A stretch of 64,000 bases of DNA from Verrucomicrobiota bacterium (GCA_021772615.1 JAJFLQ010000134.1:2039-66038), one strand, 5' to 3'; counted from the stretch's first letter, positions 7,561 to 62,932 are shown. The notes: a model not told the origin generated them from the sequence alone. Numbers and translations: made by a program.

Positions 7561-7613
7561 CAGGATTCGGACCTTCGGCCGGCCACCATAGACGTTGTCC
7601 GATCGAACCGCTG

Positions 7614-14531: not shown

Positions 14532-14558
14532 ATTTCTATCTCCATACACCCATGGCAC

Positions 14559-14760: not shown

Positions 14761-15089
14761 CGTAGCGCGATCAATGGACCGCGTGCGGGCTCGGAACATG
14801 TACCGCAAAACGGAATCGCGGCAGGATCCCGACGGATCTGTTCGGCTGTTTCCTGGGCCCCTTGACGTGCCGGCATATCCCGCCTCATCGCAACGCATTA
14901 TGTGGCATCCTGTCGGCGTGGCAGGCACGCGCTCGCAACAGAGCGTCAGGCGATCTCTTCAATCGCAGAACGTCGATAACCCATTGCACTGCGGTATGCT
15001 AGGAAGCCCCGCGACAAGGTCGCGCGGAGAGTTCGGGCGAAGGCGTTGTCGGCGCGGAAAAACGACGGGCGCAGGTGAATGCCGGAGCG

Positions 15090-16034: not shown

Positions 16035-16356
16035 GTGTTATACTCGAAAATTGTGTGGATGGACAATTAACATTGAAAACTGATTCATGAGACACCGGCC
16101 GTTTTCAGGAGTGGCGGATACAGACGTATTTTTCTGCTAAAAAAAAATTACACGGGGAACAATTCGGTTGTTGTTATTTCCGGAATCCGCGCTAGTGTGT
16201 GATTTACCAGTTGGTTACGTGGTAAAAAGCTTACTCTTCCAACAACATGAATATGGACATCGCCGAAGACGGCGAGACGTGAAAAACACCCCTTGATGTC
16301 GCGGCATACACTTGTCCCCGACTCCTGGAATACATTCGAACGATGGAGATTTTTTG

Positions 16357-25349: not shown

Positions 25350-25613
25350 GGATTGAGGCCCTCAGGGTAGAAAAGGCGAAACAGGAATGTGTTGTGATGC
25401 AATCGAAGCAGTGAGCCGGGCACACTGCATTACCAGACAACATACGCAATCCGCGGCGGGAATTCAATCAGCCGGAACAAAGTTCTGGCGCTCTCACGTC
25501 GGCGCTTTCACACTGCGGTAGAACGACCGCCGCACCGACCGTGAACCATGTTGCCGCCACGCCGACAATACCGTCCGCAGCTCACGAAGTTCGCCCCGAC
25601 TCCGGCGATTTTA

Positions 25614-25856
<243 letters not shown>

Positions 25857-25979
25857 TCATCCACGCAACATGGGTATTTAACCCAAGGTTTGAGGGGGAA
25901 TGTACCGATCGAGTCTTCCTCGCAGTCGATTTGCCCATCGCTCACCGAGCCGCCGATAGCTCGCCTCAACGTTCTTGAG

Positions 25980-27506: not shown

Positions 27507-27510
27507 TGCG

Positions 27511-29655: not shown

Positions 29656-29680
29656 CGCGAGGCCGGATTCGGCAATTGCC

Positions 29681-29938
29681 ATGACCTTCGTATTCTTGAC
29701 CGTGCTTGTGGGTATCGTCGGCGGCGTTGTATGGGCTGTCGACCGATTCTCTGAAGACCGTCCCCGCGTGACGACTCTGCTTATCGGATCGATTCTCTTT
29801 TTCGCGGCTGTGATTGTCGCGAAAGAAGCCAGATATGCTCCACGGTTTCTGGCGATGATAGTCAGTAGCGTGCAGGTCAGCGGACTGGTTTTGTGTATTG
29901 TCGGTGTCGTCCGCTTACTGCGGAAGCCGGAAGATTGA
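29681..29938 (+). CDS. small (85 aa) three-helix membrane protein
   Basis: MTFVFLTVLVGIVGGVVWAV...LLIGSILFFAAVIVA...MIVSSVQVSGLVLCIVGVV; weak RBS. Confidence 0.3.
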   Translation: MTFVFLTVLVGIVGGVVWAVDRFSEDRPRVTTLLIGSILFFAAVIVAKEARYAPRFLAMIVSSVQVSGLVLCIVGVVRLLRKPED

Positions 29939-30035
29939 CGCGGCAGCTCCGGCCGAAACGTGCCGATCGGGAAAATCTCCACATCGCAATACCAACATCT
30001 CGAAATTGATTCAAGACCAAGGGTGCGTGGCGTCA

Positions 30036-39532: not shown

Positions 39533-41704
39533 TTATGGTGCTTTGCTCTGCAAGAATTCAGCCAGCGCATCCAGATCCTGCAGATTTCTGCTGAGCGTTA
39601 GATCGAATACCTGCGTGGAGGCGGTCAAATCCCGGATAAACTGGTCAAACGCATCGCGATCCCCTGAATCAAAAAACCGATAGCGTTCGTGGATAACTTC
39701 GGTGATTCGAGCAAACGCGTCGTCACTGGTAATCGGCGTGATTTCGAATACATCGCCGATATGCGGAAAGAAAATGCGATCGAGCCCCCGGTCCTCATAG
39801 GGAGCGGCTGTGACATGATCGCTTAGTCTGATCTCCTTCTTTTTCACCCCGGCGAAATCTTTCCACTCGCAATCGATTTTTTCCGGAAAAAAGTGCTTTT
39901 CCGTCGCGGCAGTCACCCGCATTTTTCCATCGCAGCCGGAAATAAAGAACTGCCCTTCCTTACGTCGAAGAACAACGTGATCTTCCGCCAGGACCACCGC
40001 GCCGGCCTGGCCAAGGCGCAGGCTCATGGTTGATTTGCCCGAGCCATTGTGGCCAAAAAACATGTTCGTAGTCGCCCCCATCTGAATCCCTGCAGCATGA
40101 AGGTGAATGCGCCGGAAGCAGTACAGCAATCGGTACATTACGACCATGACGCTGTGCAGGATATAGTCACGGCTCTCACCTCGCGACATGATCGGCATGA
40201 CTATGATTGTGTGTTGTTCCCGCCGAAAAATGTGCGCAGCGACGGCATCATAGTAAATAATCGTGACATCTTCCAATTCCCGCCGTATGAAAATCGGCTT
40301 AAAGCCGTCGGAGTGATTCCTGCGTATAACCCACGGATCGTTACGTATCGTTTCGTCGTCAACGTCCAGGATGCAAAGCCGAATGTCCGGCGGATTCTTG
40401 CTGCCTGCGTCGGAGCAGCGGTGAAATTCGAGGCGAAACAAATCCTCGATCATGTCGATGTACGTCTCGTTCTCATATATAATGTGCGCAGACAGACTGC
40501 CAAAACGGAACCGCCCTTCCCGGTACGGCATAGCGTCGTCTGTCAATCGAAGGGGATTGCGAAGGAGGTAGTCGACGTTCCAGTCACGATGGGCGGATTG
40601 TGCACCCGAACGTCCCCCCAGCCTCCTAGTCAGGCCCCGAAAGAACGTCTTGTGATAAATCACGAGCCAGACGGGTAGACCGGCGATCCACCACACTTTT
40701 GCCGTTGCCGTACCGCAGGCATATTGCTGGAACGCCCACCGCTTTTTCTCCGCCAGAGTACTGTTTCCCAGCAAATGAAAATACTTCAGGCGGTCTGCGC
40801 GCAGACGCCATAATTGCTCGTGCTTCTTCACTGTCGCGGTGAGTGCCGGGAATTCGCCGTCGCACTCGAAAACAATCAGAAACATTGCCAGTACATTGGC
40901 CGCAATTGCTAGACACCCTTCGTGATCGCGCTCCGAGAAAAAATCGTCCCACGACAAAGAATCGTGAATTTTCCTGAGGATCATATAGAGATCGACGAAC
41001 GGACGGACCGTTATCGTTCCCAGGCTGATATCCTGATGAATTGTCAGGATCTGGGTGACAAGACAATACGTATCTGCAAGGCCGAGAAACGAATGGCTAT
41101 TTAAGGCAATCGTACATTTGCTGGCCCATATTCTATCGTAATCGAGGCGCAGCGCGATGTGCGTCCGCAGTTGATGGTGCAGGTCTAGCGGAATGCCGTC
41201 GTTGTGGAATTCGACATGATGCACAAAGCGAAACAGCAGATGCGATGTCAGCGTGACGCCCGACTCGGGTGCGAACCCCAGCTCGCGCAGCAGGCGTCTG
41301 CTGTGGTCGAAATCCCGAGGTCGCACCATCAAGTCGATGTCATGCGCCTCGCGGCGGTCGATATTGCCGTAAAATCGGCTGGCTAGATGGGGGCCCTTGA
41401 GAACAAGGAACTCGATGCCGGCAGACTCGAATCGTGTTGAGATCCGCCCCAGCTCCTGCACGAATTTCTCGTTGCGCTGCCATTGCATGAAATAACGATA
41501 CTTGAAGCGCGACCGGACATCACCGGGAAATATCGCCCGTTCGTGATCGCTCTTCAGGCATGTGTAAACAAAGCCGGCAAGTTGATTTTCCTGGCAGAAA
41601 TCAAAAAAACGATGCGGATCCGACTGTGCGAGCTGGTATCGAGCCAACTCGAATTCAGGCTTGACGATCGCTTTCAGTATTAAAAAGCCATGGAGGTCTG
41701 TCAT
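39533..41704 (-). CDS. fusion protein: N-terminal uncharacterised nucleotidyltransferase (NTP_transf_5-like) + C-terminal HprK-related P-loop kinase domain
   Basis: N-term FLVLKGPHLASRFYGNIDRREAHDIDLMVRP (NTP_transf_5-like); C-term LHAAGIQMGATTNMFFGHNGSGKSTMSLRLGQAGAVVLAEDHVVL (HprK-like P-loop). Confidence 0.65.
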   Translation of the reverse strand: MTDLHGFLILKAIVKPEFELARYQLAQSDPHRFFDFCQENQLAGFVYTCLKSDHERAIFPGDVRSRFKYRYFMQWQRNEKFVQELGRISTRFESAGIEFLVLKGPHLASRFYGNIDRREAHDIDLMVRPRDFDHSRRLLRELGFAPESGVTLTSHLLFRFVHHVEFHNDGIPLDLHHQLRTHIALRLDYDRIWASKCTIALNSHSFLGLADTYCLVTQILTIHQDISLGTITVRPFVDLYMILRKIHDSLSWDDFFSERDHEGCLAIAANVLAMFLIVFECDGEFPALTATVKKHEQLWRLRADRLKYFHLLGNSTLAEKKRWAFQQYACGTATAKVWWIAGLPVWLVIYHKTFFRGLTRRLGGRSGAQSAHRDWNVDYLLRNPLRLTDDAMPYREGRFRFGSLSAHIIYENETYIDMIEDLFRLEFHRCSDAGSKNPPDIRLCILDVDDETIRNDPWVIRRNHSDGFKPIFIRRELEDVTIIYYDAVAAHIFRREQHTIIVMPIMSRGESRDYILHSVMVVMYRLLYCFRRIHLHAAGIQMGATTNMFFGHNGSGKSTMSLRLGQAGAVVLAEDHVVLRRKEGQFFISGCDGKMRVTAATEKHFFPEKIDCEWKDFAGVKKKEIRLSDHVTAAPYEDRGLDRIFFPHIGDVFEITPITSDDAFARITEVIHERYRFFDSGDRDAFDQFIRDLTASTQVFDLTLSRNLQDLDALAEFLQSKAP

Positions 41705-44974: not shown

Positions 44975-47710
44975 TCATGATTCGGAGATTTTGATCTGCA
45001 TACTTTTAAGCGTTTGCCTGGCCAGTTCGCAAACTTGTACGGAAATAGTCTTACGAGACGACTCGATGGCTTCCAATATGGGAACGCCTTTCGGATCTCC
45101 ACAGTGGCCTAATGCTTCGACAACCTCGGTTATTAACGCATTCTTCTTACGCCTTGGTATTTCGGCAATTACTTGCCACACGCTCGCATCTTTGCGATAG
45201 GTTAGTCCGACAGCCGCAATTAACCTGGTTTCCTGCTCGTCAGATTCAAGAGACTTCTTCAGTAATTCAAGTCCGTGAGCGGTGCCGATTAACGCCATTC
45301 CTCGCGCTGCCTTTGAGCGAAGATGAATGCGTACATCGTCATCCTGAAAAGTTGGCAGTCGCGGAGAAATGTAGGTCGATGGATCCAGGAAAAGAGTCTG
45401 CAAGATCTCCATCGCCGTAACATCACCTATTGTTCCGAGTGTCTTCGCAGCGGCGACTTGGACAGTCCAGATTGGATCACGTAGAGCTTGGATCAAAGGT
45501 CGAACGGCCTGTTGGTCGCCGACGTGTCCCAAAGAATTGGCTGCAGAGCAGCGTAGTGAATCAGACGGCGAACCAAGCGCCTTTATGAGGGCTGGAGAAA
45601 CACGAGAATCTCTGGTGTAACGCAACCCGTACGCAGCTGCGCTACCACAGTCATCCTTCTTAAGTCGAGACAGCAAACCGGATACAGAAGCACGTGTGTT
45701 AATGCGACCTAGCGCCTGCGCTGCGCTGCAGGTAATCATGGAATACTGGCCTGGCGTGCCCTCACCGGCCGTCAGTTCATATGTTTTGCCGTCTAGACTC
45801 CGCAACAACGGCCTAATCGCACGAGGATCTCCCATTTTTCCGAGCGCAATCGCTGCTGCTTTCCTGAACGGCCGTATGCCGCCCCCATCCCGCCAGGCCC
45901 GTGGTGAACAACAATCCAACAACGGCGCCGATCAGGCACCGATGTAGAAGTGTGCGCCTGCGGTTTCGCCGACTCTGTTCGATCCTGCTCGCGGCGATGA
46001 GGCGTTGCTCATGCGGCATTAACACACCCAGCCCCATTGCACCCTGTTCTACGACCAGCAAATCCGGTCCGTCGAGGATCGCACCGTGATGGTCGTTGGC
46101 CCACTCCACAGCGCGATTTTTCAGTATCCGTCGAGCGCGTGGCCCAGGAAGATCCGACTCGTCGAATTTGTGTCGTATCGGCAAGGCCAAGGTGTCGTGG
46201 GCCAAGCGCGTCGTTCTCTTCGCGCTGTTGCCTTTTGAGCCAGATTCGAACAGTAGATAAAGGTTCTTGCATTCCTCCAGGAGTCCGGAAAGCTCCTGCT
46301 TGTGATTATTGTACATCTTCATCAGGTCATCTCGACACCGCTCAGCCGCTGTCATTTGTGGTGTGGTATGATACACCAACAGGTCAAGCACAAACCCGGA
46401 CGACACCAAATCTGGATAGACTCCCGCCAACTGCGCGAGCTGGCGATCTACAAAGTCGTCCAGGAGCAGACCCTGCTTTTTGATTCGTAGGTAAAGGGAT
46501 TCGGTAAATGCTGGCGTGGCGCTACTCAACTCCGCGGCTTCTTCCCACATCTTTGTCAACAAGATTTGCAGTGCCGGCGCCGTCGGGGAGTCGCGATCGT
46601 TAAGCAGGTCATCGGCAATCTGTTCCGGAACATGGGTTTCTATGGTAAGGCCATATTGCTTTTGCAATCGTGCCGTGCTCACCAGCCCGTTCACAATTTC
46701 AATAACGGCGTCTCGATCCAATGCCTCAAGGAATACTCTTCCAAAGCTTACCGCGTTCAGATCGAATATTTTCTGGACCTCCGGGAACCACTCCTTACGA
46801 AATGACACGAGTATCTTTCCCTGAAAATCGCGACCGTCGACCGTGAATATTTCACTGAGCGCCTGCGCCAATTCAGCCAATTCATTGGGCCGGTCCGCGT
46901 TCGGATGCGTAAACACTTCCTCTACCTGATCCAATAGAATGATGAGCGGCTTGCCGACCGCGACCTCGGCGGTCCGCCATGCCACCCTCAAGGGGGTTCC
47001 AACTGTGGAATGCCCCGGGCCATCGCTCCCGTCCTGATCGTCGGCCAAATGGATTAAGGCCTTTTGAATCGTGATCGTAAGACTGTCCTTCTGGTCCCGG
47101 CGAATGTACAGGATCTCGTAATCCCTCTTCAATCGCGGCAGGAGGCCGGCAGCCAGGAATGACGATTTTCCCACTCCAGTTTGCCCATAGAGCATTGTGA
47201 TCGGTGCGGCGGCGGCGCTGGTGATCCGCTGGTACAAACTCTTCAGTTCCCGATTGCGACCGAAAAATATTTCGGCATCTGTTTCGACGAAATACTGTAA
47301 TTAACGGAACGGCTTCGCCGGCAGATCGCGCCGGGGCAGACCAGGCAAACCCCAGCAAGGGTCTGGAATCGGCAAGATATCGGCGCATCGTTCCGTAACA
47401 GTCGCGATTGGCGCAGGTCCGCCAGCGGCAACGGACGAACAGGCAACGGAGTCACACATTCAAGCAACGCCCAATCTTCATGCTGATCATGAAATGCGCC
47501 GTAAATTACGGCTTCGGTCGTGTGCTCCGGAAATTTCAGCGTGATTGTGCCGGGGGCAGGAACGGGTGGGGTTTGGAAACGATCTGCGACTACATGCAAC
47601 GCAGTGAGCATCAGCCGCTCGGACACCAGGCATCCGGTTCCGCGACTGATATTCGTGCCATCGTCGACGATATCAATGCGAGCGATGGCGTTTCGGACCA
47701 CAGAATCCAT
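44975..47710 (-). pseudogene. decayed paralog of the protease-NTPase-repeat gene: trypsin-like domain (internally deleted) - STAND-type NTPase - TM - HEAT repeats, split by nonsense and frameshift
   Basis: ORFs 47243..47710 (trypsin N-term, MDSVVRNAIARIDIVDDG..GTGCLV..LTALHVVAD), 45813..47237 (P-loop MLYGQTGVGKSSFLAAGLLPRL.., TM) and 44975..45922 (HEAT/PBS repeats LGKMGDPRAIRPLL..) are collinear with the intact 54580..58902 gene; in-frame TAA at 47301..47303 where the intact copy has Tyr (PFRY-LQYF); frame changes near 47375..47415 and in the overlap 45813..45922 containing a C5 tract (45881..45885). Confidence 0.55.
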
Positions 47711-49415: not shown

Positions 49416-50825
49416 CTACTCGCTCCATTTCGAGGCATGCTCGGATTGCCGGCGGTAGAGGGCGGGATTGAAATATTTCTCGTAATATTCCAGTTCGATA
49501 TGGCATACCTGTACCCAGGTCCCCGGCGCGTAAAAGGCGTCGGTGTGCGCGGGAAAGCGACCATAGGTATCGAAGATATAGTTACAAATTTCCTTGGTGT
49601 ATTCTATGGTCTCCGGAGAATACTGCATACCGCTCGCTCGAAATCGCTCAACATCGCCTGCATCCCGGTACGAACGGCTGAAAATGGCGGTGTCCGCATA
49701 GGCTGCACGCTTGTCCTCAAGATGGCGATCGACGGCTTCGTCCATTGACGTCACATAAGGCGGACAGAGCCCCTCAAGAACACCATTAATTCCTACCGGA
49801 TTTGGCTGAGTCGACGGTAAAGGCGGCCAGCACGTCCATTCTTTTTTGGGGGTCTCCATGCGAAAACCAAGACCGTGTAATCCTTTCTCGTCGTCACGCT
49901 GAAAGATGTAAGGCGCCTGCGCGCAGGCATGCACCCAGCTGCCCAGCCCCAACGCCTGGGATACGAGCATCAGGTTTTGTTGTATGAAATAGGCTTCGTG
50001 ATCGGACAGCATCGTGCGAGCGAGACCGAGCGGGAACATAATTTTGGGATTCACGAACCCGCCTTTGACGCGGTCAACGCCCCCAATTGGCTGGTAAGGA
50101 ATATCTGGTATGAGTCCCAGATGATCGGCCGCCCAGGCCGCCCAGTCTTTGATATTGCGGGGATGGAAATGCTGCCAGTCATCGATGAACAAGGGGCGTT
50201 CGCCATCCGGACTCGCCAGCACATTCAGGATGCCGTTTATGTACATGCGCGTGGTATCGACAATCGGGAGAAACATGGTCGTGCCGGGGACATTGGAAAT
50301 TTGTCGATTCCACCCCATGTAATACGGGAATTTTCTCGGAAAATCGAGACGACGGTCCGAAATTCTGTGTTTTGCGGTATCCGCGACGTGCAGCCAATCC
50401 GCTTCTGCCCAGTCCTCCCAGCGCGCTGGAAGATCCTTGAGAAGATCAAGTCCTTCTTTTCCCTCCAACCGCCGAATTAACCACGTGCCGTCATCATTGG
50501 TCATGAATATCCGTGTCGGCTGGCTGTTATCCGGACTGCTTGCCGCCCTGCCGAGAATATTCATGAATGGTGTGGCCAGCTCTTTACCGTCGTCTTTGTA
50601 ATCGAGTGGACCATCGTGAGTAGTAATGGCCGTGAGCCCTGTCGAAGCAATGAGAATGGCTTCCTCAAGAGGGCGTAAAGGGGCCGGCGCGTTGGTGCTC
50701 TCGTGGCTCATCGCGCCGGAGTGAATCGAGGTGCCTTGGGCTACCCTCCGACTACGGCGATGGAGAATGGCGGACAGTAAGGGGTAGTCGAAGAGTTCTT
50801 TGAGGCCGCTTTTTTTATTTGGCAT
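49416..50825 (-). CDS. large (469-aa) nitroreductase-fold protein (SagB/ThcOx-like size), function unknown
   Basis: N-terminal LSAILHRRSRRV (RRSxR FMN-binding-type motif) and C-terminal NLMLVSQALGLGSWVHA (nitroreductase LGLGxxW motif); both by-eye. Confidence 0.4.
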   Translation of the reverse strand: MPNKKSGLKELFDYPLLSAILHRRSRRVAQGTSIHSGAMSHESTNAPAPLRPLEEAILIASTGLTAITTHDGPLDYKDDGKELATPFMNILGRAASSPDNSQPTRIFMTNDDGTWLIRRLEGKEGLDLLKDLPARWEDWAEADWLHVADTAKHRISDRRLDFPRKFPYYMGWNRQISNVPGTTMFLPIVDTTRMYINGILNVLASPDGERPLFIDDWQHFHPRNIKDWAAWAADHLGLIPDIPYQPIGGVDRVKGGFVNPKIMFPLGLARTMLSDHEAYFIQQNLMLVSQALGLGSWVHACAQAPYIFQRDDEKGLHGLGFRMETPKKEWTCWPPLPSTQPNPVGINGVLEGLCPPYVTSMDEAVDRHLEDKRAAYADTAIFSRSYRDAGDVERFRASGMQYSPETIEYTKEICNYIFDTYGRFPAHTDAFYAPGTWVQVCHIELEYYEKYFNPALYRRQSEHASKWSE

Positions 50826-50874
50826 GGTAACTCACTTTGTGATTTAAGATTAGTCTGATCAATTCCTTTCAGCC

Positions 50875-51098
50875 GTGCGGTCGCTGGGGACATCGACCCT
50901 CCACAAGACCGTAAAACGTGTCGTGCGGTCGGTGCGGACATCGACCCTCCACAAGACTGCAAAACGTGTGGTGCGGTCGCTGGGGACATCGACCCTCCAC
51001 AAGACTGCATAACGTGTGGTGCGGTCGCTGGGGACATCAACCCTCCACATGACTGCAGAACGTGTCGTGCGGTCGCTGGGGATCTGTGTCCTCTACGC
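50875..51098. repeat. 48-bp tandem repeat, ~4.6 copies (minisatellite)
   Basis: units gtgcggtcgctggggacatcgaccctccacaagactgcaaaacgtgtc at 50875, 50923, 50971, 51019 plus a partial at 51067; a few substitutions per unit; intergenic between two minus-strand genes. Confidence 0.85.
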
Positions 51099-51114: not shown

Positions 51115-54100
51115 TCAACTTCCCCGCTCCAGTTCTTCCACGATGATCGGAAAGACATCCCGATGGGCGTTTTTTCCGATCATACAGTCCAGATGAGCAT
51201 AATCCGGGATGACCCGCCGAGTGTACAGCTCTGTACCGTTGTTTTCGCGTAACCATAAGTAGGTTTTCTCGGAGCCGTCGGGGAAGAACATGGTATTTTT
51301 CGCACCGTGAATCAGGGAGATCGGTAAGGCGAGGCTTTTTACATTCGGCATATAAGTATCCTTGCCGTCCTTGTCCACGATGTACCCCTTCTGAAGGATC
51401 TTCAGGATCTGATGGAATACGTGAACGTTAAACGTCCCGAACATTTCCTGTATCGCATCATGCACTGCCGGATTCAGCTGGGCGTGCGTGTAGCAGTGTC
51501 CGAATATCGCGAAGATCCGGCGACAGACGGTACTGTTGCACTGCTCTTCCCTGGGGATTGGGTATAGCTTGACGATCTGATCAACAACATCGGCTCCGAG
51601 ACTTCCGCCGGGATCCGTTGTAAGCTCGTGTATGCCGAGATCCTCGCAAATAGTGGCCAGGCGTATGTCGGCTTTGAGTTTGCCATCGAGCTGGATGTCT
51701 GGATGAGGTGTAAATTGCGATGCAACAAACGAACGCACGCCTTTGAGCCCCGCGAGAAGAGCCATAAAACACGTTAGCGAGCCGACACAATGCGCCACCA
51801 CCTGTACGTCCTTACTCTTCGTTACCGAGCAGACCTCCCGCACCGCTGCCGGCCAGTCGCGCCTGGCGATATCGTCGAGCATAAACTGAGTACGTGAGAC
51901 CGGCAAATCCGGGCTTGCGCGGTAGTCCAATAACCACGTATCATACCCCTTTCCGCTAAGGTATTCAGCCAGATTCACCTCAACAGCGTCGAACGTGAAG
52001 CCATACGTTGAATTCCCGAAGCCGGGAGCGCAAATCACAGGCCCCTTCTCGCCTCCCTGAAAACGAATGAGCCGCAATTCAGCGCCGTCATCCGCAGTGA
52101 AATGGTGAATGTCCGGAGCCGGCGCGTTGAGCGGGCGTTTTTTACGCTGGAATCTCTCCCCCACCGTGCAACAGTCTGCGGTCACTCCTCCGTAACTCTG
52201 CCAGAGAGAGCCGGCAAAGAATTCGCCAAAGCGAGCCAGGGCACTGAGGCGTTGGGCCTCATTTTCGGCATTTGTAACGGCAATAGTCGTCATTTGCATC
52301 ATGAAATCCGCCGGCGCAATTTTGAGGATGCCTTTGCCGAGTACGGGCGCCTGTTCGTTCTCACCGTCATAAAGGGTGATGTACAGGGTTGTGGTTTGCG
52401 GCCATGCATTCAGCAGTGAACCATGGTTGATCACCTTATAGCCGTAGAAGTAGTAAACGCGCCCGTCTTCCGCGTGAAGTTTCATCTTGTAACGCATATT
52501 TCGCGTTTCGACTTCATCCTCATTGCTGATAAACAGGTTGAACGTCGCATCGCTTACGGTGAGCGACTGCGGCGAGAGCTCAGGAGCTGTGACGGTTCCG
52601 TGCATCTTCGCCTCATGCGCCGGATTATCGATAAGCTTATTGACGTCATCCGATACTACGCTGAGTACGAAATCGAGCATAGATCCGTCTTTCTCTCCCT
52701 GCTTCGCTGCTGCTGCAAAATCGTCTTTTACCTGGCACGAGAAGTAGCCTTTCATTTTCTCCGTAAATCGGATGCCGATCGTCTGCGCTACAGAGGGTTT
52801 TCGGGGTTTCGATCCGAATGTATAGTCGATCGACCATCCACGATCCTCCGCTATAATCGCGCAGCATCGCTCGGCCAGCGCCGAAATTGTCAGGAGAGGA
52901 TTCACGCCGACACTGGCAGGCAGGACAGCGCCGTCGCAAACGTAGAGCCCGTCATGGACCTCCTGTCCTTCATTACCGGAAAAAGCCTGTCCCTTGTGAT
53001 TGACGACGCCCGATTCTGCTCGATCGGCCATCACACAACCGCCCAATGGATGCACGGTGATCAGGCTTTTATGGAAGTGTTTGCTCCAGATAGGATTCTT
53101 GACATACTCACCATCCAACGCCTTTGTAGCCTCGTGCAAGCTTTCATTTATCGTTTCGAAGATGGGTTTTTTGCCTACATTCGGCCACGATATCCGAAGT
53201 CTATCATCCTGGAGCGTCATCTCGCCATCGCTATCATCATGGGCCATCACCAGATATGTCTGTGTATGTCTCGTCGCACCGAAGTATGCGCCGTGAAGCA
53301 GGCTTTCAGCGACTCTTGCAGTTCGTTCGATGCCTTCAAGAAAACCGACGTTCTTGTCGAGCCCCAGTGCGACCGCGGCCTCATTGAGTGCGCACGGCAG
53401 GATCCCTGCCATCGCACCAGGCATCACGCCTTCTTCGATGACATAACCGTCATGCACATTCGGCGTCTCACGATGATCGATGATGCCGGTTATGCAGGGT
53501 CCGGCAGGTGACGCGTGCCCGGGCCTGCGACGGCCCAACCCGATACCATTGATCTCGTCAGCGCAATTATAGCCAAAGCCGAGAACGTCCCCGTTGCCGG
53601 TAAAATTCCGGCCGAGCATATCCGGCAGGGACAAGCCTTTTTCCCGAGACCTCAGGAGGATTTGGGTTGAGCCAAGCGAGCCGGCAGCCACTATCACGAT
53701 ATCGCAGCTTACAAAGAGACTTTCAGCCTCGAATTTCTCGCGGCCTTCGCCAATAGTCTGGTAGAAAACCATCCATTTGCCATCGCGGCGTTCAACATTT
53801 CGAACGTTGATCTGCGTAAAGATCTCGGCGCCGTGATTCCATGCGTCCGGCAGGACATTCATTAACGTCGTGTTCTTTGCCGAATAATTACAACCGGAAA
53901 CACAATCGCCGCAACCGTTGCACGCCTTTTGCTCTACGCCCACAGGATTTGTCCCGTCCGCAAATGTGACATTGATCGGCGGACGATAAAACTCCCCCTC
54001 CAACCCCATACTTCGTGCTGATTTTTCCTGCGCCTTCAACTTTCCCAGTTCCGGAAAATCATCTGGATACGGCGTCGCTCCCAGGACCTTTTTCGCACGC

Positions 54101-54513
54101 TCATAGCCGTCCTTGATGCGTCCGTCCACATCGGCGCGAATTTCGTCCGGCCATCGCGGATCGTCCCATACTCGGGGATCCGCATGCAGCGACACATTCG
54201 CATTGATCAACGAGGTGCCGCCAAGTCCGCAGCCGACCAGCGCATTCATCTCTTCGTTGACATGGAACTCGAACATTCCCTCGTGGGAACCGACGTGGCC
54301 GGTTGGTGTATTGAGCTGGATCTCGGCCAACGCCTCCAATTCGGTATCCGGATATTCACCCGGGTGAATTTCGCGTCCGCGTTCCAGGACGCACACGTCT
54401 TGCCCCGCCCGCGACAATCGCGATGCCGCGATACCGCCGCCGTAGCCGGAACCAATGACGACAACCGTGTAGTGGTCCTTCATGTCGCTTGTTGGCGATG
54501 ATAAACGATTCAT
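51115..54513 (-). CDS. fusion protein: GMC-family FAD oxidoreductase (cholesterol-oxidase-like) + C-terminal alpha/beta-hydrolase domain
   Basis: N-term VVVIGSGYGGGIAASRLSRAGQDVCVLERG (FAD bab motif), GMC C-terminal active-site region HPLGGCVM...VCDGAVLPASVGVNP; C-term nucleophile elbow VVAHCVGSL; start MNRLSS with AAGGGGGG RBS (ORF 51115..54576 trimmed). Confidence 0.8.
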   Translation of the reverse strand: MNRLSSPTSDMKDHYTVVVIGSGYGGGIAASRLSRAGQDVCVLERGREIHPGEYPDTELEALAEIQLNTPTGHVGSHEGMFEFHVNEEMNALVGCGLGGTSLINANVSLHADPRVWDDPRWPDEIRADVDGRIKDGYERAKKVLGATPYPDDFPELGKLKAQEKSARSMGLEGEFYRPPINVTFADGTNPVGVEQKACNGCGDCVSGCNYSAKNTTLMNVLPDAWNHGAEIFTQINVRNVERRDGKWMVFYQTIGEGREKFEAESLFVSCDIVIVAAGSLGSTQILLRSREKGLSLPDMLGRNFTGNGDVLGFGYNCADEINGIGLGRRRPGHASPAGPCITGIIDHRETPNVHDGYVIEEGVMPGAMAGILPCALNEAAVALGLDKNVGFLEGIERTARVAESLLHGAYFGATRHTQTYLVMAHDDSDGEMTLQDDRLRISWPNVGKKPIFETINESLHEATKALDGEYVKNPIWSKHFHKSLITVHPLGGCVMADRAESGVVNHKGQAFSGNEGQEVHDGLYVCDGAVLPASVGVNPLLTISALAERCCAIIAEDRGWSIDYTFGSKPRKPSVAQTIGIRFTEKMKGYFSCQVKDDFAAAAKQGEKDGSMLDFVLSVVSDDVNKLIDNPAHEAKMHGTVTAPELSPQSLTVSDATFNLFISNEDEVETRNMRYKMKLHAEDGRVYYFYGYKVINHGSLLNAWPQTTTLYITLYDGENEQAPVLGKGILKIAPADFMMQMTTIAVTNAENEAQRLSALARFGEFFAGSLWQSYGGVTADCCTVGERFQRKKRPLNAPAPDIHHFTADDGAELRLIRFQGGEKGPVICAPGFGNSTYGFTFDAVEVNLAEYLSGKGYDTWLLDYRASPDLPVSRTQFMLDDIARRDWPAAVREVCSVTKSKDVQVVAHCVGSLTCFMALLAGLKGVRSFVASQFTPHPDIQLDGKLKADIRLATICEDLGIHELTTDPGGSLGADVVDQIVKLYPIPREEQCNSTVCRRIFAIFGHCYTHAQLNPAVHDAIQEMFGTFNVHVFHQILKILQKGYIVDKDGKDTYMPNVKSLALPISLIHGAKNTMFFPDGSEKTYLWLRENNGTELYTRRVIPDYAHLDCMIGKNAHRDVFPIIVEELERGS

Positions 54514-54579
54514 TATTCCCCCCTTTTGGTCTATCTTGTCGTTACCCGCTTTCACGGATCGGTTACGGCGGCGCATGGG

Positions 54580-57500
54580 TCAATCAACATGCCGTGCAAC
54601 TACGCTTTGCTGATCAATCGGCACAGTTTTCCACAGGCAGCGCTTACAAACCTTGGATGCGTCCCTCATCAACTGTGATTTCTCCGAACGATACTTGAAC
54701 TCGTACTGCAAGCGGTTACAGGCGATCTCAAGCCAATCGCGCCAATCCACGCGCCAGTGCCAAATCTGATTATCGGAGCTGCCGACAATGAGGTACTTAC
54801 CGTCTGCGCTGAAGGCCAGGGACGTGAATGTCGCCGCGCGGTAATCAGCAAGCACATCCGATATCAGCTCCATGCCACGGCCCCAGAGCCGCGCGACACC
54901 GTCTACTCCCGTGCTGGCAATCCTGCTGCCATCCGGACTGAATGCGAGAGCCGTTATGGGACCGTTATGCGCTCTCTTTTCACTCACCAGATTCGTGTTC
55001 GTGTCCAAATGCCACGAAAGAATAAATCCGTTTTCGGTACCGCTGAGAAGTATGTGTCCCGCCGGGTTGAAGGCCAGACTCGTTGGCGTGGAATACAGGT
55101 CCGATGTTGTTTGCAGAAGATTGCCGTCCAGATCCCACAATCGGACTGTGAGATCATCCGAGCACGTCGCGATACGATCTCCCTGCGGGTGGAAGGCAAC
55201 GGCTGTAATTACACCGCTATGCCCAACGAGATCACTCACGCATTGTCTCGTATCCACATCCCATAATCGCACCTGCTGATCAGCGCTGCCGCTGGCCACT
55301 AAATTGCCGTCCGGGCTGAACGCAATACAGGTTATCGGGGCGTAATGTCCCGACAACGGATCGCCGTCCGATTTACCTCCTGCCGTCCAAAACCTGAGAT
55401 ACTCATCGATCCCGCCGCTGACAAGGACGGTCCCGTCGGGATGTATGGCGAGGGACGATATGGAACCGGAACGGACTTCCACATTCCAGCCCGGCCGGTG
55501 TGTAGCCGCCGACCACCTGCGAATTGTGCCGCCCTGGCCGGCGCTGAAAAAGGCGTCGCCATCCGGGCTGTATGCCACCGCATTTACGGCAGCATCGTGA
55601 GCCTCAATCGGTTTCCCCACCATTATGCCCTCGGGATCAAGGAATTTAAGGGTTCCCTGATCGGTCCCGAATGCAATGAATGTGCCATTCGGATGGTAGC
55701 CTAGCGATTCCACGTTACCGACGTAACCCGTGAAGTCGGGGGCCACGTTGTTACCTTCGAAGTCGATAAAACGGATGGCACGGTCGTCGCCGGCACTGAC
55801 GATTCGCTCGCCATTCGAATGAACAACCAGGCTGGTGACCGCGCCGCCATGATGGGTAAACGGCTCTTTCGCCGCACTCCCGTCGAGATGCCACAACCGC
55901 ACCGTTCCATCGTCGCCACCGCTGACGAGCATGTCTCCTGCCGGATTGAACACAACGGCATTCACGCTCCCTGCGTGCCCGTCAATTGAGGTGAGCGATT
56001 CGTCTTCGAACTGAAATATGTGGATCTTGCCGTCACCGCTGGCGCTGGCAAAAGAAGTGCCGTCCGGGTTGAAAGAAATCTGATGGATGACCGCATGGTG
56101 TGCTTCTTTTGGCAATCGCAAGCTGGCGCCATTCGCGTCCCACAACTGTATCGACCCATCCCAGCAACCACTAAGTATTCTTGTACCATCAGAACTGATC
56201 GCCACTGCCGTAACATACTTGCGATTCGGTACGGGTTCACACCACACCTCGACACCCTCGGTAGTCCAAAAACACACTGTCCCGGCAGCACCGCCGCTGA
56301 CGATATGACAACCGTCCGGCGTGTAGACGACGGATTCAACACCTTCCTCATGCCCGGTAAAATTTTTATTAACAACCGTTCCATCCAACATTACCTGCTG
56401 GATAACAGGTTTGATTCCTCCGCATGCAACCGTGTGCCCATCCGGACTGAATGCGATCGAGTTGATGCCCCCCAACTTCGGAAACCAGATCGCATTCTTC
56501 TCCCGTGCGACTTCCACAGCACTGCTTAGTCCATGTTGTATGCCGTGCAGAACCCGATCGAACTGATCTTCGCTCTTGCCTACTAAAGCCACCGCGTTCG
56601 CCAGCGCCAACGCGGGTTCCTTTGAGAGCTTCTCGGGCATTTCGGCCGCTTCTTTTCGGATTAATGCTTCTTTGAATCGCCGTTGGGCCGTTTGTTTCTC
56701 CTCCTCCGCCTTCCTGCGTTCGGCCAACGCCGTGTTCTTATCGCGCTCAGCATCTACCTTTGCCTCTCTCGCCTCATGCGCCTTTTTTACCGCTTCATGC
56801 ATTCCGGTCCAGGCGAGTCCCGTCATAATCACCATTCCAACCACCGCCGCCGCCAGGCCCATATGCAACATCTGCCGAACACGATCTCTGCGTTTACGTT
56901 CAATCTTGCTGGCGGCCACGAGCCGTTTTTCATGCGGCATCAACACACCAAGGCCGCTTGCGCCGGCTTCGACAATCGCCAGGTCTGCCCTGTCCAGGAC
57001 GGCGCCAACTCGGTCGTCCTTCCATTCCATTGACCGATTCCCCAGGATACGACGAGCACGCGGACCCGGAAGATCCGATTCGTCGAAACGACAGCGAACC
57101 GGCAATGCGAGCGTATCGTGAGCCAGGCGAGTAACCTTCTTACCGGCCATCTGGTCATTCGACGAGTCGACGAGGAGGTATAGGCTCTTGCATCGCTCTA
57201 TCAAGGCGTCCAGATCATACCGGTGATTGCAATAGGTACGGTGAAGCTCATCTTCGCTGCGTGCCGCGGCAGTCATCATCGGTGTCGTGTGATAAACCAG
57301 GAGATTTAGCACGAAACCGGTATCCACCGCGTCACGGTGGTGTGCCGCCAGCTGACCCAGCTGACGATCCACAAAATCAGCCAGCAGCAGCCCGCATTTC
57401 TTGACGTCGTGATAGAGCTCGATCGTAAACGCCGGTGCCGAATTATTCGATTCCGTGGCTGCCTCCCACATCTTCGTCAGTAGGATTTGCAATGCAGGAG

Positions 57501-58902
57501 CGGTTGGCGACTCACGGTCTCTGAGGAGGTCATTGGCGACGAGCGCTGGTACCGCCGGATCTATGGTCAGCCCATAGTGTTGGCGAAGGCGCACGGTACT
57601 GTGCAGTCCGGCAACGATTTCGATGACGGCTTCATGATCGAGTGCTTCAAGAAAAACCTTGCCGAACCCCACGTCGCTCGATTCGAAAACCTTTTGTACT
57701 TCCGGGTACCACTCTTTGCGAAACGAGAAAATGATCCTGTTTCTGGACGACGGATTCCCGTTGGAGAACATGTGTTTCAGCACCTGAACAAGTTCGACGA
57801 GTTCATCTGGCTGGTTTTCGGTAGGTCGCGTAAAAACCTCCTCAACCTGGTCCAGTAAGATGACTATCGGTTTGCGAGCGTCGGTTTCCGCGGCACTCCA
57901 CACAGCAGGCAAGGGATCGGAAACAGAAGAATGCGGCTGCGAGTTAGCAGACGCGGGATCGGCTGTCAACTGAATCAATGCCCTGCGAATCGAACCGGAC
58001 AAGGTATCGTACTGGTCGCGGCGAACATAGAGAATTTCGTAGTGCCACGCCAGTCTGGGCAAGAGCCCGGCCGCGAGGAAGGATGACTTTCCTACTCCGG
58101 ACTGGCCATAGAGCAACGTGATCGGGGATGCGTCCTCGGCGATGACCCGTGAATACAAGGACCTGATCTCTCTATTCCTGCCAAAGAAAATTTCCGCGTC
58201 CTGCTCATCGAAATACTGTAGGTATCGAAAAGGTTTGACCGGTAATGGTCGACGCTGCAGACCGGGCAGTCCCCAACAGGGGTCGGGTATCGGCAGAAAG
58301 TCGGCGCATTTATCGATTATTGCAGCAATCGGACAGGCATACAACGTACCGGCCACAGCCTGATCATCCTTCATCAGAGCGAATCGCAACACACCCACGA
58401 TGGCGTTGTCTACGATCATCGGTGCGCCCGAGAGCCCTTTCACGGGTGCGCCTTCTCCTCCGGCAGCCTGCTTGCTGAACAATTGAATCGCGTCGATACC
58501 GTTGAGTAGTGCCTTGTGATTCTCCACCGTTCCCGTCTGGATCATGCCGTCAACCGGTTGGGAATCTGGAAATCCGTAGGTGACGAAATCGCCACCGGAC
58601 CTGCCGAGGTTGGCAAGGGGAATCGGCCGCGCCGAAACGGTATTCAGGCACGTTAACAACACCCAATCACTGTGGGGATCGAAGTATGAATCATAGATGG
58701 CTGCTTCGACGACGCCTTCGGGGAATTGCAGAAATATCGTGCCAGGGTGTGGCAGGGGCGGATTCTTTTCACGGTCGGCGACGACATGAAGAGCGGTAAG
58801 CACCAGACCGTCTGCAATCAGGCATCCGGTCCCACGACTCTTGCTTCTGCCTTCATCACCAACTTCGATGCGGGCGATAGCGTTTCGGACCAACGCGTCC
58901 AT
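54580..58902 (-). CDS. 1440-aa multidomain protein: trypsin-like serine protease - STAND-type P-loop NTPase - single TM - coiled coil - WD40 beta-propellers
   Basis: protease: GTGCLIADGLVLTALHVVAD..GLSGAPMIVDNAIVGVL; NTPase: ITLLYGQSGVGKSSFLAAGLLPRL, Walker B IVILLDQVEEVF; TM MGLAAAVVGMVIMTGLAWTG; Lys/Glu/Arg-rich coiled coil; >=12 WD repeats (..GHxxxVxxVAFSPDG..GSxDxTVRLWD..). Confidence 0.85.
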   Translation of the reverse strand: MDALVRNAIARIEVGDEGRSKSRGTGCLIADGLVLTALHVVADREKNPPLPHPGTIFLQFPEGVVEAAIYDSYFDPHSDWVLLTCLNTVSARPIPLANLGRSGGDFVTYGFPDSQPVDGMIQTGTVENHKALLNGIDAIQLFSKQAAGGEGAPVKGLSGAPMIVDNAIVGVLRFALMKDDQAVAGTLYACPIAAIIDKCADFLPIPDPCWGLPGLQRRPLPVKPFRYLQYFDEQDAEIFFGRNREIRSLYSRVIAEDASPITLLYGQSGVGKSSFLAAGLLPRLAWHYEILYVRRDQYDTLSGSIRRALIQLTADPASANSQPHSSVSDPLPAVWSAAETDARKPIVILLDQVEEVFTRPTENQPDELVELVQVLKHMFSNGNPSSRNRIIFSFRKEWYPEVQKVFESSDVGFGKVFLEALDHEAVIEIVAGLHSTVRLRQHYGLTIDPAVPALVANDLLRDRESPTAPALQILLTKMWEAATESNNSAPAFTIELYHDVKKCGLLLADFVDRQLGQLAAHHRDAVDTGFVLNLLVYHTTPMMTAAARSEDELHRTYCNHRYDLDALIERCKSLYLLVDSSNDQMAGKKVTRLAHDTLALPVRCRFDESDLPGPRARRILGNRSMEWKDDRVGAVLDRADLAIVEAGASGLGVLMPHEKRLVAASKIERKRRDRVRQMLHMGLAAAVVGMVIMTGLAWTGMHEAVKKAHEAREAKVDAERDKNTALAERRKAEEEKQTAQRRFKEALIRKEAAEMPEKLSKEPALALANAVALVGKSEDQFDRVLHGIQHGLSSAVEVAREKNAIWFPKLGGINSIAFSPDGHTVACGGIKPVIQQVMLDGTVVNKNFTGHEEGVESVVYTPDGCHIVSGGAAGTVCFWTTEGVEVWCEPVPNRKYVTAVAISSDGTRILSGCWDGSIQLWDANGASLRLPKEAHHAVIHQISFNPDGTSFASASGDGKIHIFQFEDESLTSIDGHAGSVNAVVFNPAGDMLVSGGDDGTVRLWHLDGSAAKEPFTHHGGAVTSLVVHSNGERIVSAGDDRAIRFIDFEGNNVAPDFTGYVGNVESLGYHPNGTFIAFGTDQGTLKFLDPEGIMVGKPIEAHDAAVNAVAYSPDGDAFFSAGQGGTIRRWSAATHRPGWNVEVRSGSISSLAIHPDGTVLVSGGIDEYLRFWTAGGKSDGDPLSGHYAPITCIAFSPDGNLVASGSADQQVRLWDVDTRQCVSDLVGHSGVITAVAFHPQGDRIATCSDDLTVRLWDLDGNLLQTTSDLYSTPTSLAFNPAGHILLSGTENGFILSWHLDTNTNLVSEKRAHNGPITALAFSPDGSRIASTGVDGVARLWGRGMELISDVLADYRAATFTSLAFSADGKYLIVGSSDNQIWHWRVDWRDWLEIACNRLQYEFKYRSEKSQLMRDASKVCKRCLWKTVPIDQQSVVARHVD

Positions 58903-61129: not shown

Positions 61130-61290
61130 CATTGCTGATGTTTGTAGTACTCGTCGGCCTGCCTGTCTTTCATAAGCGTGGATCGCAGCAGAGCGACAAC
61201 GGCATCGTCGATGATCATCGGCGCACCTGAAAGGCCTTTTACTGGAGCGCCCTCGCCTGCTGCCGCCTGTTTACCAGAGCTCGACTTATG
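61130..61290 (-). pseudogene. orphan 3' fragment of a trypsin-like protease domain
   Basis: minus-strand translation SSGKQAAAGEGAPVKGLSGAPMIIDDAVVALLRSTLMKDRQA matches the catalytic-Ser region of 54580..58902; preceded by in-frame stop. Confidence 0.5.
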
Positions 61291-61740: not shown

Positions 61741-62289
61741 TTACAGCTCTGTCGAACTCTGGAGAGCGAACCGCAGCACACCAACCACGGCGTTGTCCAT
61801 CAGCATTGGTGCGCCCGACAACCCCTTAACGGGCGCTCCGTCGCCGGCCGCCGCCTGCTTGCTGTATAGCTGAATGGCATGAATGCCGTTTAGCTGCCCG
61901 TGATGGTTCTCCACGGTTCCGGTCTGAATCATGCCGTCAACCGGTTGCGAATCGGGGAACCCGTAGGTAACGAACTCGCCGCCCGACTCGCGGAGGTCTG
62001 CAAGCGGGAGGGGCTGGATTGGGACCGATTCTTCGCACTTCAATATCGCCCAGTCGCCCTGGGGATCGTAATAGGTTTCATACAGCGTCGCTTCGACCTT
62101 ACATTCAGGAAAGGTGAGCGTGATTGTGCCGGGATAAGCGGCAGGGGGATTCTCGAACCGATTCGCGACGACGTGCAACGCCGTAAGCACCAGCCGATCG
62201 GCTACCAGGCAACCGGTACCGCGACTGAGATTTTTGCCGCCGTCGTTGACGTCGATTCGAGCGATAGCATTTCGGACCAACGCGTCCAT
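61741..62289 (-). CDS. stand-alone trypsin-like protease domain (third paralog, truncated after protease domain)
   Basis: MDALVRNAIARIDVNDGGKNLSRGTGCLVADRLVLTALHVVAN...GLSGAPMLMDNAVVGVLRFALQSSTEL*; high identity to N-terminus of 54580..58902 but stops where the intact gene continues into the NTPase. Confidence 0.55.
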   Translation of the reverse strand: MDALVRNAIARIDVNDGGKNLSRGTGCLVADRLVLTALHVVANRFENPPAAYPGTITLTFPECKVEATLYETYYDPQGDWAILKCEESVPIQPLPLADLRESGGEFVTYGFPDSQPVDGMIQTGTVENHHGQLNGIHAIQLYSKQAAAGDGAPVKGLSGAPMLMDNAVVGVLRFALQSSTEL

Positions 62290-62932
62290 GATGAAACCCA
62301 ATCTGTGCAAGCGCAATGTTTGCCTACGGCGACATCGATCTCTTGCCAGGTAGAGAACGAATGATGTCACAACTGGTGGCCGCTAAATGATTGTAACCAC
62401 CGCAGCGATGCGACACCAAAGAACATTACTGGCGTACACCGCAAGGCTAACCGCAGAAATATAAGAATGCAAACCAACTACGAATAGACCTCCCCCAACC
62501 TATCGACCATCGACATCATGTTTCGCGCCAGGACGCGTCTGCGCAACAACGTCTGGAGGGCGGATGGCCCCAGCCGCCGATTTAAACCAATCTTGCGCGC
62601 TCGCAAGCCGAGGGCGGTTCCAAGACTATATCGCACACCAACTTGTAGCGGGAAATCCGGCGAGATCGGCCCAGGAATCGGCAAAATATTGACATCTAAG
62701 TGTACGATTAATACCTTTTGTATAGCTAGATGTCAATCTAGGGAATCGTAATCTGTGATAATTCTTACGCACGCCTAGCCTCAGTAACGACATGGCGTAT
62801 AGTATGAGCTACTTTCGCGGGAAATGATGGATTTTGTAAGAAGGCAAAATCGTTAACCTCTCACATTTGCCTACTTCAACGTGAAGTATATTCGTATAAG
62901 AAACTTGTGTCATAGTAGAATTACTAACAAGA

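Follow-up and report, generated by a model that had tools for sequence, protein, structure and literature searches.

Architecture of the protein

The minus strand of a 64,000-nucleotide stretch of DNA from a Verrucomicrobiota bacterium (GCA_021772615.1 JAJFLQ010000134.1:2039-66038; the whole stretch is referred to below as the window) carries, at positions 54580 to 58902, an open reading frame (ORF) that starts with ATG, has no internal stop codons and encodes a protein of 1440 residues. An identical protein has been called on an independent 9-kb Logan contig and on a 66.6-kb NCBI contig. From the N- to the C-terminus, it is composed of a trypsin-fold protease, an nSTAND1 nucleoside triphosphatase (NTPase), a predicted transmembrane (TM) helix, a helical stalk, 14 WD40 blades, and a cap (Table 1). 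An initial annotation of the window had described an intact protease/STAND-type NTPase/TM/WD40 chain of this length, and the ORF call, the Pfam matches and hydropathy all agree with that description. The architecture itself is not new, and the gene is a member of a named, abundant, and experimentally unstudied family. Two AlphaFold2 models, one of residues 1-830 (predicted local distance difference test, pLDDT, 88.4) and one of residues 640-1440 (pLDDT 89.6), lay the chain out as a double β-barrel protease, an α/β nucleotide-binding core, helical units, a long helix that contains the TM segment, 14 blades, and the cap. Here and below, the invariance of residues was read from alignments of 12 and 48 relatives.

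The central module matches the Pfam family nSTAND1 (PF20703) at residues 224-598, with an E value of 9e-34 and 113.7-118.1 bits against a cutoff of 27.1, over profile positions 1-340 of 379. Competing P-loop models did far worse (NACHT, 15.6 against a cutoff of 26.7; AAA, 16.2 against 21.2), and a housekeeping AAA+ identity was rejected, given that the AAA, AAA_22, NACHT, and Orc1/Cdc6 models all scored near or under their cutoffs, whereas nSTAND1 was far over its own. The view that this region is something other than a housekeeping AAA+ domain is thus borne out by the profile search, which places it in nSTAND1. The STAND class of P-loop NTPases was reportedly defined by Leipe et al. in 2004, and its features can be recognised here as a Walker A motif of the form GxxxxGK[ST], a Walker B motif followed by acidic residues, and C-terminal superstructure-forming repeats, namely the 14 WD40 blades. 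We take the sequence hhhhDQVEE to be an extended, acidic Walker B resembling that of NACHT domains. Among the relatives, G266-S274 of Walker A, D351, and R395/K396 of an FRKEW motif are invariant, while Q352, E354, and E355 are conserved; R395 is a candidate sensor-1 residue, assigned by its position. AlphaFold2 predicts a nucleotide-binding subdomain at residues 261-418, a helical one at 423-536, a winged-helix-like unit (helix plus hairpin) at 550-608, and further helices at 612-646. With the model of residues 1-830, Foldseek aligned the NTPase module to Cdc6/Orc1 over 398 columns, and a sequence search of the PDB did not find a solved nSTAND1 relative. Judged by its sequence, the protein is a member of the conflict-associated STAND clade nSTAND1.

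The N-terminal domain was recognised by the Pfam model Trypsin_2 at residues 24-154 (E 2.8e-9, 38.3 bits against a cutoff of 27.6). As in HtrA-like members of the PA clan, there is an ordered His-Asp-Ser triad, a GxSGxP motif at the serine, and a double β-barrel fold, and the closest solved folds in searches with the same model belong to the DegS/HtrA family. A mapping of the triad had been suggested as a check on the initial annotation, and it located H39, D79, and S158 in this domain, all of them unchanged throughout the alignments of relatives. The protease is apparently catalytically competent, to judge by these residues. In PADLOC, its best matches are the protease domains of the defence proteins Avs1b, LmuA, and RT-protease. 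Avs proteins are reportedly the subject of work by Gao et al. in 2022, and membership of Avs1b itself (NCBIfam NF041810, PADLOC PDLC02159) was considered and rejected, as the score was 40.7 bits against a cutoff of 1500 and the overlap was confined to the protease (residues 2-275 against positions 3-238 of 1931). The Avs-like logic invoked at first thus does not extend to membership of Avs1b.

The C-terminal half consists of the stalk, the propellers, and the cap. In the second AlphaFold2 model, a single continuous helix runs from residue 656 to 753, through the TM segment, and the 50 residues after that segment are 74% E, K, R, D, Q, or A (the family median is 52%), so that the charged "coiled coil" noted earlier is confirmed, as a charged helical stalk, by both model and composition. 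Pfam reports 11 WD40 repeats over threshold (residues ~810-1390), and a register of 42 residues yields 14 blades, all of them confidently modelled (pLDDT ~90). The best match among solved propellers is 2ymu, a repetitive 14-blade propeller (E 3e-54, 31% identity), and Apaf-1 was also matched. There is no sign of recent homogenisation of the repeats at the DNA level, since 54580-56500 contains no array according to Tandem Repeats Finder. In the cap, Cys1395 and Cys1419/1422 lie at two motif positions that are also occupied by cysteine in most of 35 close WD40-type relatives (tail alignment, assessed by eye); the strict pattern occurs in 19 of 85 relatives in a wider set. As a weak hint, a disulfide between these cysteines would fit an oxidising, extracytoplasmic location.

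The predicted membrane helix and its probable orientation

The segment at residues 678-700 has the highest hydropathy in the protein (Kyte-Doolittle 1.92 over 19 residues), and outside the protease core the 19-residue windows that reach 1.6 start only at residues 678-683; the peptide quoted in the initial annotation begins at residue 681. In the 15-residue flanks of the hydrophobic core, there are seven Lys or Arg on the N-terminal side and two on the C-terminal side. One helix of about 20 hydrophobic residues with a positive excess on the cytoplasmic flank is what characterises type II single-pass proteins. Both AlphaFold2 models place the segment within a long helix, isolated and unpacked against either domain.

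The same helix is found in most of the family. We looked in relatives for a hydrophobic 19-mer situated 330-520 residues past Walker A, and it was present in 96 of the 120 listed matches of a word-indexed search, at a median distance of 401 residues (range 381-463), and in 109 of 117 further independent representatives of 50%-identity clusters. Many of the exceptions are truncated sequences or have a sub-threshold helix at the same place, and overall the helix occurs in about 90% or more of the 237 relatives, whatever their effector or sensor. Even among the distant cyanobacterial relatives, with 27-37% identity in the P-loop region, most have a hydrophobic segment 350-445 residues past Walker A. 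Given that the helix is kept while effectors and sensors are exchanged, it must be regarded as part of the conserved core. The charge bias is conserved as well: the N-terminal flank is the richer in Lys and Arg in 94 of 96 and 104 of 109 helix-bearing relatives (198 of 205 combined, again with 15-residue flanks). About five relatives lack the helix (P0119, P0188, P0200, P0209, and P0227); in these, a charged helix replaces both the Arg-rich patch and the TM segment, and the proteins are still long. They are natural comparators for the contribution of the helix.

By the positive-inside rule, the protease and the NTPase probably lie in the cytoplasm and the sensor outside (N-in/C-out), and the dependence of the NTPase on ATP would also argue for a cytoplasmic N-terminal half. 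Since the window contains TonB-dependent receptor and PEP-CTERM genes, the host is taken to be a diderm, in which an N-in/C-out protein would have its sensor in the periplasm. Regarding the initial annotation, the prediction of a TM helix agrees with hydropathy and with the conserved positive-inside bias. The same bias supports its placement of the sensor and the enzymatic domains on opposite sides of the membrane, while its description of this arrangement as a transmembrane-signalling variant does not stand, the TM helix being the norm in the family.

Relatives, decayed paralogs and neighbouring genes

A word-indexed search with residues 1-800 returned 358 matches, the best of them 47-54% identical, and a HMMER search with residues 221-720 against 1.84 billion representatives of 50%-identity clusters returned 15,034 at E<=1e-3, 2,214 at <=1e-10, and 1,077 at <=1e-30. 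According to precomputed domain lists, the family is modular, with Trypsin_2 or CHAT (caspase-like) at the N-terminus, nSTAND1 in the centre, and WD40, FGE-sulfatase, TPR, LRR, or nothing recognisable at the C-terminus, to which a paralog in the window adds HEAT. The named source taxa include Thermoanaerobaculia, Betaproteobacteria, Polyangium, Planctomycetota, Chloroflexota, KSB1, and Methanothrix; the genome matches listed add Gemmatimonadota, Acidobacteriota, Rhodothermaceae, Bacteroidia, and a Thiosymbion symbiont, and filamentous cyanobacteria contain more distant relatives. Confinement to core genomes, which would have spoken against a conflict system, is not what is seen, as the relatives are distributed patchily across phyla and are at most ~54% identical. 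Some relatives in the range of 650-770 residues (P0003, P0006, P0017, and P0044) end at or just before the TM segment, with tails that are apparently out of frame; these may reflect recurrent breakage or mis-assembly at the junction between NTPase and sensor, or they may be genuine sensor-less forms.

Paralogs of the gene were sought by tblastn of the protein against the window. The initial annotation had mentioned at least two decayed paralogs within 18 kb; their decay is evident, and the count was low, as we found three remnants. The first is 58-61% identical and keeps the nSTAND1 module, the Arg-rich patch, and the TM segment, but residues 103-189, including the catalytic serine, have been deleted, with a frameshift at that point and an in-frame stop at the codon of Tyr227, and the remnant stops 22 residues past its TM segment. 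An ORF of HEAT repeats overlaps its end in another frame and is most likely its former sensor, in which case this paralog had a different class of sensor from the intact copy. The second remnant retains the catalytic His, Asp, and Ser but ends short of the final strands of the barrel, and the third is a short fragment of the protease. Together with the HEAT sensor class, these remnants indicate that paralogs turn over by duplication, sensor exchange, and decay. Among the loci of relatives, L002 has three intact copies in tandem, and L057:2059-18402 has two intact copies plus fragments of nSTAND1 and trypsin, which, considered alongside the window, suggests repeated duplication and decay at such loci.

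Immediately downstream and on the same strand lies an ORF of 1122-1153 residues (the gene caller reports 1122) in which a GMC oxidoreductase, a module of about 205 residues, and an α/β-hydrolase are fused. Its likely start is at 54513 or 54483, 66-96 nt from the STAND gene. No terminator-like site was seen between the two; promoter and terminator scans of the surroundings of the gene carry no information, shuffled controls having produced more matches. The same set of three occurs as separate genes beside relatives in a Betaproteobacteria lineage known from metagenome-assembled genomes (L004, L058, and L059; L004:1026-4355), while in L038 it is split between both sides (7396-8169 and 14344-16726); in each case, the set accompanies a pair formed by a metallophosphoesterase gene and the STAND gene. 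The homologues are colinear, with identities of only 26-45%, and in our small sample the set is missing from the neighbourhoods of most relatives. Its occurrence in three arrangements, in apparently unrelated hosts, suggests a cassette or a functional link, and the downstream fusion is a possible functional partner of the STAND protein. The partner genes of linked protease-effector defence modules include those for MBL, α/β-hydrolase, Pepco, EACC1, and metallophosphoesterase proteins (PMC12642450); the hydrolase domain adjacent to the STAND gene is part of the GMC fusion and may or may not belong to the published hydrolase family. A conflict-systems paper that was searched for the GMC set makes no mention of it.

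The metallophosphoesterase genes of these pairs encode calcineurin-like proteins of ~500 residues with weak Pfam matches to Metallophos, and lie on the same strand 8-20 nt upstream of the STAND gene. They were found in five independent contexts (L002, the L004/L005/L058/L059 group, L038, L039, and L057) among about ten trypsin-type loci examined, and two of the encoded proteins are 46% identical. Other relatives, in L003, L006, and L060, have no such gene upstream. A 469-residue ORF of the window (49416-50825) was tried as the counterpart of this partner and rejected, as it has no similarity to it. The near-universal, uniformly oriented TM helix, the metallophosphoesterase partner, and the association with the GMC/205-residue/α/β-hydrolase set all go beyond the descriptions of the family that we consulted.

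The window, which includes dnaA and lepA (13164-14558 and 18784-20637), is chromosomal, and the closest named relatives of its LepA, at no more than 75% identity, come from metagenome-assembled genomes of Lentisphaeria/Victivallales. The host is probably an uncultured bacterium of the PVC (Planctomycetes-Verrucomicrobia-Chlamydiae) group, with a tentative Lentisphaerota-like placement read from that protein. It does not look like a known multicellular or predatory bacterium, the setting envisaged at first. Elsewhere in the window, a tandem repeat (50874-51082; 48 bp in 4.4 copies with 92% matches) lies between the GMC/hydrolase gene and the 469-residue ORF, which has no Pfam match. The region 22602-34214 encodes a Ser/Thr kinase of 915 residues, an FHA-domain protein of 749, and a protein of 1438 with a bacterial Ig-like domain; this cluster shares no sequence relationship with the STAND gene and resembles kinase/FHA threat-signalling sets. 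A tRNA-Arg (CCG) gene at 25761-25837 lies inside the mechanically called ORF 25548-27506, which is therefore probably non-coding, at least in its 5′ part; an Rfam scan of the window found only a tRNA, away from the STAND gene. Finally, 39533-41704 on the minus strand encodes a 723-residue protein with an NTP_transf_5 "uncharacterised nucleotidyltransferase" domain (E 8e-40) and a weak match to the P-loop kinase-like AAA_33.

Table 1. Positions of the features discussed, counted from the first letter of the window unless a locus of a relative is named.
Feature	Position	Strand	Remarks
Intact ORF	54580..58902	(-)	1440 residues; stop codon 54580-54582
HtrA/DegS-like serine protease domain	58303..58902	(-)	residues 1-200
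Catalytic H39	58786-58788	(-)	protease domain
Catalytic D79	58666-58668	(-)	protease domain
Catalytic S158	58429-58431	(-)	protease domain; in GLSGAP
Linker motif	58261..58296	(-)	residues 203-214; LPxPDPCxGLPG at the protease/NTPase junction; columns L203-G214 invariant or nearly so
nSTAND1 NTPase module	56953..58233	(-)	residues 224-650; from the PF20703 match, motifs, and AlphaFold2 (pLDDT mostly >90)
Walker A	58084-58107	(-)	residues 266-273; GQSGVGKS
Extended Walker B	57838-57867	(-)	residues 346-355; IVILLDQVEE
Arg/Lys-rich juxtamembrane segment	56872..56913	(-)	residues 664-677; SKIERKRRDRVRQM; predicted cytoplasmic
Single predicted TM helix	56803..56871	(-)	residues 678-700; LHMGLAAAVVGMVIMTGLAWTGM
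Charged helical stalk, then three short helices	56503..56802	(-)	residues 701-800; predicted extracytoplasmic
14 WD40 blades as two propellers	54751..56502	(-)	residues 801-1384; predicted sensor
Helical C-terminal cap	54583..54750	(-)	residues 1385-1440; W..WL...C.RL...(~25 aa)...C
GMC oxidoreductase/~205-residue module/α/β-hydrolase fusion	51115..54576	(-)	downstream; one ORF
Decayed paralog 1	45858..47710	(-)	58-61% identical
HEAT-repeat ORF	44975..45922	(-)	other frame, overlaps end of paralog 1
Paralog remnant 2	61741..62370	(-)	protease-only ORF of 209 residues, 70% identical to residues 1-181
Paralog remnant 3	61156..61272	(-)	39 residues matching residues 144-182, 77%
Metallophosphoesterase gene	L002:4446-5981		
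Metallophosphoesterase gene	L004:4479-5990		
Metallophosphoesterase gene	L038:8425-9993		
Metallophosphoesterase gene	L039:3038-4636		
Metallophosphoesterase gene	L057:6454-7983		

Possible mode of action and its alternatives

Several known systems share part of this organisation. Kaur, Iyer, Burroughs and Aravind named nSTAND1 in 2021, and the part of their paper devoted to it treats combinations of effector, nSTAND1, and FGE/lectin domains as predicted counter-invader systems (PMC8195603). The common plan given there for the family (PF20703), with an N-terminal effector (trypsin or caspase), the NTPase, and a C-terminal ligand-binding domain, is also that of the present protein; however, that section describes FGE/lectin sensors that bind invader molecules and mentions no membrane helix, whereas here there is a TM helix and WD40 repeats (PMC8195603). 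Within the searchable literature, terms for a transmembrane STAND gave a single passing mention, the "transmembrane STAND ATPases" fused to Pepco-associated proteases in a preprint by Evans et al. 2025 (PMC12642450, Fig. 5A), which likewise combine protease, STAND, and TM segment. In Pepco-type logic, the protease licenses a neighbouring latent effector, and such STANDs figure there only as a sensor class, uncharacterised (PMC12642450). The relatives described here pair with a metallophosphoesterase-like gene instead, a class that the same preprint lists among uncharacterised protease-associated effectors (PMC12642450). No small partner of the Pepco, EACC1, or MBL type stood out in an ORF and Pfam survey of 40-64 kb of the window, which included no dedicated searches for them.

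Protease-type Avs proteins (Avs1b, Avs2, and Avs4; PMC13581612; bioRxiv 10.64898/2026.08.25.746987) also have an N-terminal trypsin-like protease, a STAND switch, and a C-terminal repeat sensor, but their NTPase is apparently of another clade, and their sensors are cytoplasmic, TPR-like, and bind phage proteins, in contrast to WD40 propellers that are predicted to lie outside. Apaf-1 and bacterial Apaf-1-like STANDs (PMC13581612) likewise have tandem WD40 propellers placed after a STAND NTPase. Unlike our protein, in which the protease output is fused, Apaf-1 recruits it; moreover, Apaf-1 is of the AP-ATPase clade and not nSTAND1, has no TM helix, and uses its propellers to clamp a cytosolic ligand and touch the nucleotide-binding oligomerisation domain directly. 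A propeller of the WD40 class is carried on a stalk outside the cell by EsrA of Actinomycetes, a proposed detector of antagonists in which the propeller is the most variable part (PMC13622651). EsrA is secreted as a protein of its own, relays its signal through kinases and an FHA protein, and has neither a STAND module nor a fused protease, so that its architecture is non-homologous; it is nevertheless a precedent for a surface-exposed WD40 threat sensor (PMC13622651). DegS/HtrA is likewise a membrane-tethered protease that is switched on by a sensed ligand, although in DegS both the protease and the PDZ sensor are periplasmic, while here the predicted place of the protease is the cytoplasm, with an NTPase as its predicted control.

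On balance, we think it probable, with some reserve, that this is a single-pass N-in/C-out nSTAND1 protein in which a ligand outside leads to oligomerisation and the protease then cleaves an effector or other targets. The propellers would bind an extracytoplasmic ligand, for example an invader or an envelope-associated molecule. Because such a sensor would be unable to contact the NTPase across the bilayer, a further step would be needed, in which the ligand might cause the stalk and TM helices to cluster or rearrange and so pass the signal across the membrane. Clustering would permit NTP-dependent oligomerisation of the cytoplasmic modules, and this could juxtapose and activate the protease domains, which would then cleave a latent effector or cellular targets and cause growth arrest or death. 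The likeliest substrate in the relatives may be the upstream metallophosphoesterase-like protein, and in the window the only linked candidate would be the downstream GMC-oxidoreductase/α/β-hydrolase fusion. Activation of latent effectors by cleavage has been shown for protease-fused sensors of other STANDs (PMC12642450). Of the proposal in the initial annotation that the protein is a conflict sensor, the conflict-associated clade and the defence-type matches of the protease stand, and the defence function is putative.

A number of observations weigh against this reading. The topology is predicted solely from hydropathy and the positive-inside rule. Where proteins with such WD40 repeats have been characterised, the repeats are mostly in the cytoplasm, and since the relatives without a TM segment are still long, the sensor may be able to function without an intervening membrane. 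No solved STAND fold was among the PDB matches listed for residues 1-830, in which protease matches occupied the lists; STAND membership therefore derives from the match to the curated family model, from the motifs, and from the order in which the domains are predicted. A literature search did not find an experiment on any member of the family. The metallophosphoesterase partner is absent from the whole window by tblastn of the partner, and PADLOC found no known defence genes among nine neighbours in the window, returning only repeat and P-loop noise and the paralog remnants. Lastly, the protease-type Avs proteins that have been characterised recognise phage proteins inside the cytoplasm (PMC13581612), a mode of sensing that would be unworkable for a sensor that faces outwards.

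Some of these points could be explained by a non-immune function, which seems rather unlikely to us. With the same topology, the protein could be a TM receptor for a cue from the envelope or the environment, for instance contact between cells, the state of an exopolysaccharide, or envelope stress, and its protease could process a regulator or an enzyme, such as the product of the presumably co-transcribed GMC/hydrolase gene. Not only the PADLOC result but also the chromosomal setting with dnaA and lepA, the tight same-strand linkage to the fusion gene without an intervening terminator-like site, and the recurrence of the GMC set in three arrangements would be in keeping with such a receptor. 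Furthermore, membrane-anchored proteases of the HtrA fold such as DegS are established components of envelope-stress signalling. Nevertheless, the GMC set is missing beside most relatives, effectors are swapped (trypsin, CHAT/caspase) as are sensors across four or five repeat classes, paralogs multiply and decay, and the distribution is patchy across phyla at low identity. Swapping, decay, and patchiness are typical of conflict systems and not of conserved signalling pathways (PMC7159879, PMC8195603).

It is less probable still, and in our opinion quite improbable, that the hydrophobic segment does not span the membrane, being instead a buried or peripheral element, such as an oligomerisation element or a monotopic anchor, in a cytoplasmic protein that senses an intracellular protein as Avs or an Apaf-1-type STAND does. 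Characterised Avs proteins, among them those with a fused protease, recognise phage proteins in the cytoplasm (PMC13581612, PMC12642450), the cytoplasmic sensor of Apaf-1 consists of double WD40 propellers that our model matched, members of the family without the segment are known, and AlphaFold2 confidence is low (~46) around residues 700-720. Against this, the segment has 19-25 consecutive apolar residues, with Kyte-Doolittle values of up to 2.9 in relatives, is always single, is always preceded by 5-9 Lys or Arg, and shows the flank asymmetry already described in all but seven of the relatives that have it. It is also modelled as isolated and unpacked, followed by a charged helix of ~50 residues of the kind exposed to solvent, and the survey from the Gao laboratory, too, uses the transmembrane label (PMC12642450). 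That the gene is itself degenerating like its neighbours, intact by chance and devoid of current function without its metallophosphoesterase partner, might be imagined from the three decayed copies within 18 kb and the missing partner gene, but is very improbable in view of the stop-free 4.3-kb reading frame, the retention of all family-invariant catalytic and nucleotide-binding residues, the confident modelling of 14 of 14 blades, and the relatives in L003, L006, and L060 that likewise have no such gene upstream.

If the N-in/C-out reading is extended to the family, it is possible, though doubtful, that there is a large overlooked class of receptor-type STANDs, that is, NLR-like switches of bacteria and archaea with the sensor outside, which would detect threats before or without entry and whose oligomerisation would allow the protease to license undescribed effectors. 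As triggers of such receptors, we would tentatively consider adsorbing phage parts, periplasmic predators, epibionts, and the toxins or surfaces of competitors. Their effectors might, with similar caution, be sought in the metallophosphoesterase-like protein of the relatives and possibly in the GMC/hydrolase enzyme here.

To our knowledge, ligands are detected intracellularly in every prokaryotic STAND immune sensor characterised, with the sensor folded against the NTPase. If the helix does span the membrane, more than 1000 clusters, spread across bacteria and including at least one archaeon, would link a repeat sensor outside to an NTPase and a protease inside, and both a different mechanism of activation and a different class of triggers would be required. 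The gene described here, with its 14-blade sensor, all its catalytic residues, and decayed sisters with another sensor, is a clean intact representative that could be used for experiments on topology and activation, and the recurrent neighbours of the family, the metallophosphoesterase-like gene and the GMC/205-residue/α/β-hydrolase set, point to candidate substrates of the protease.

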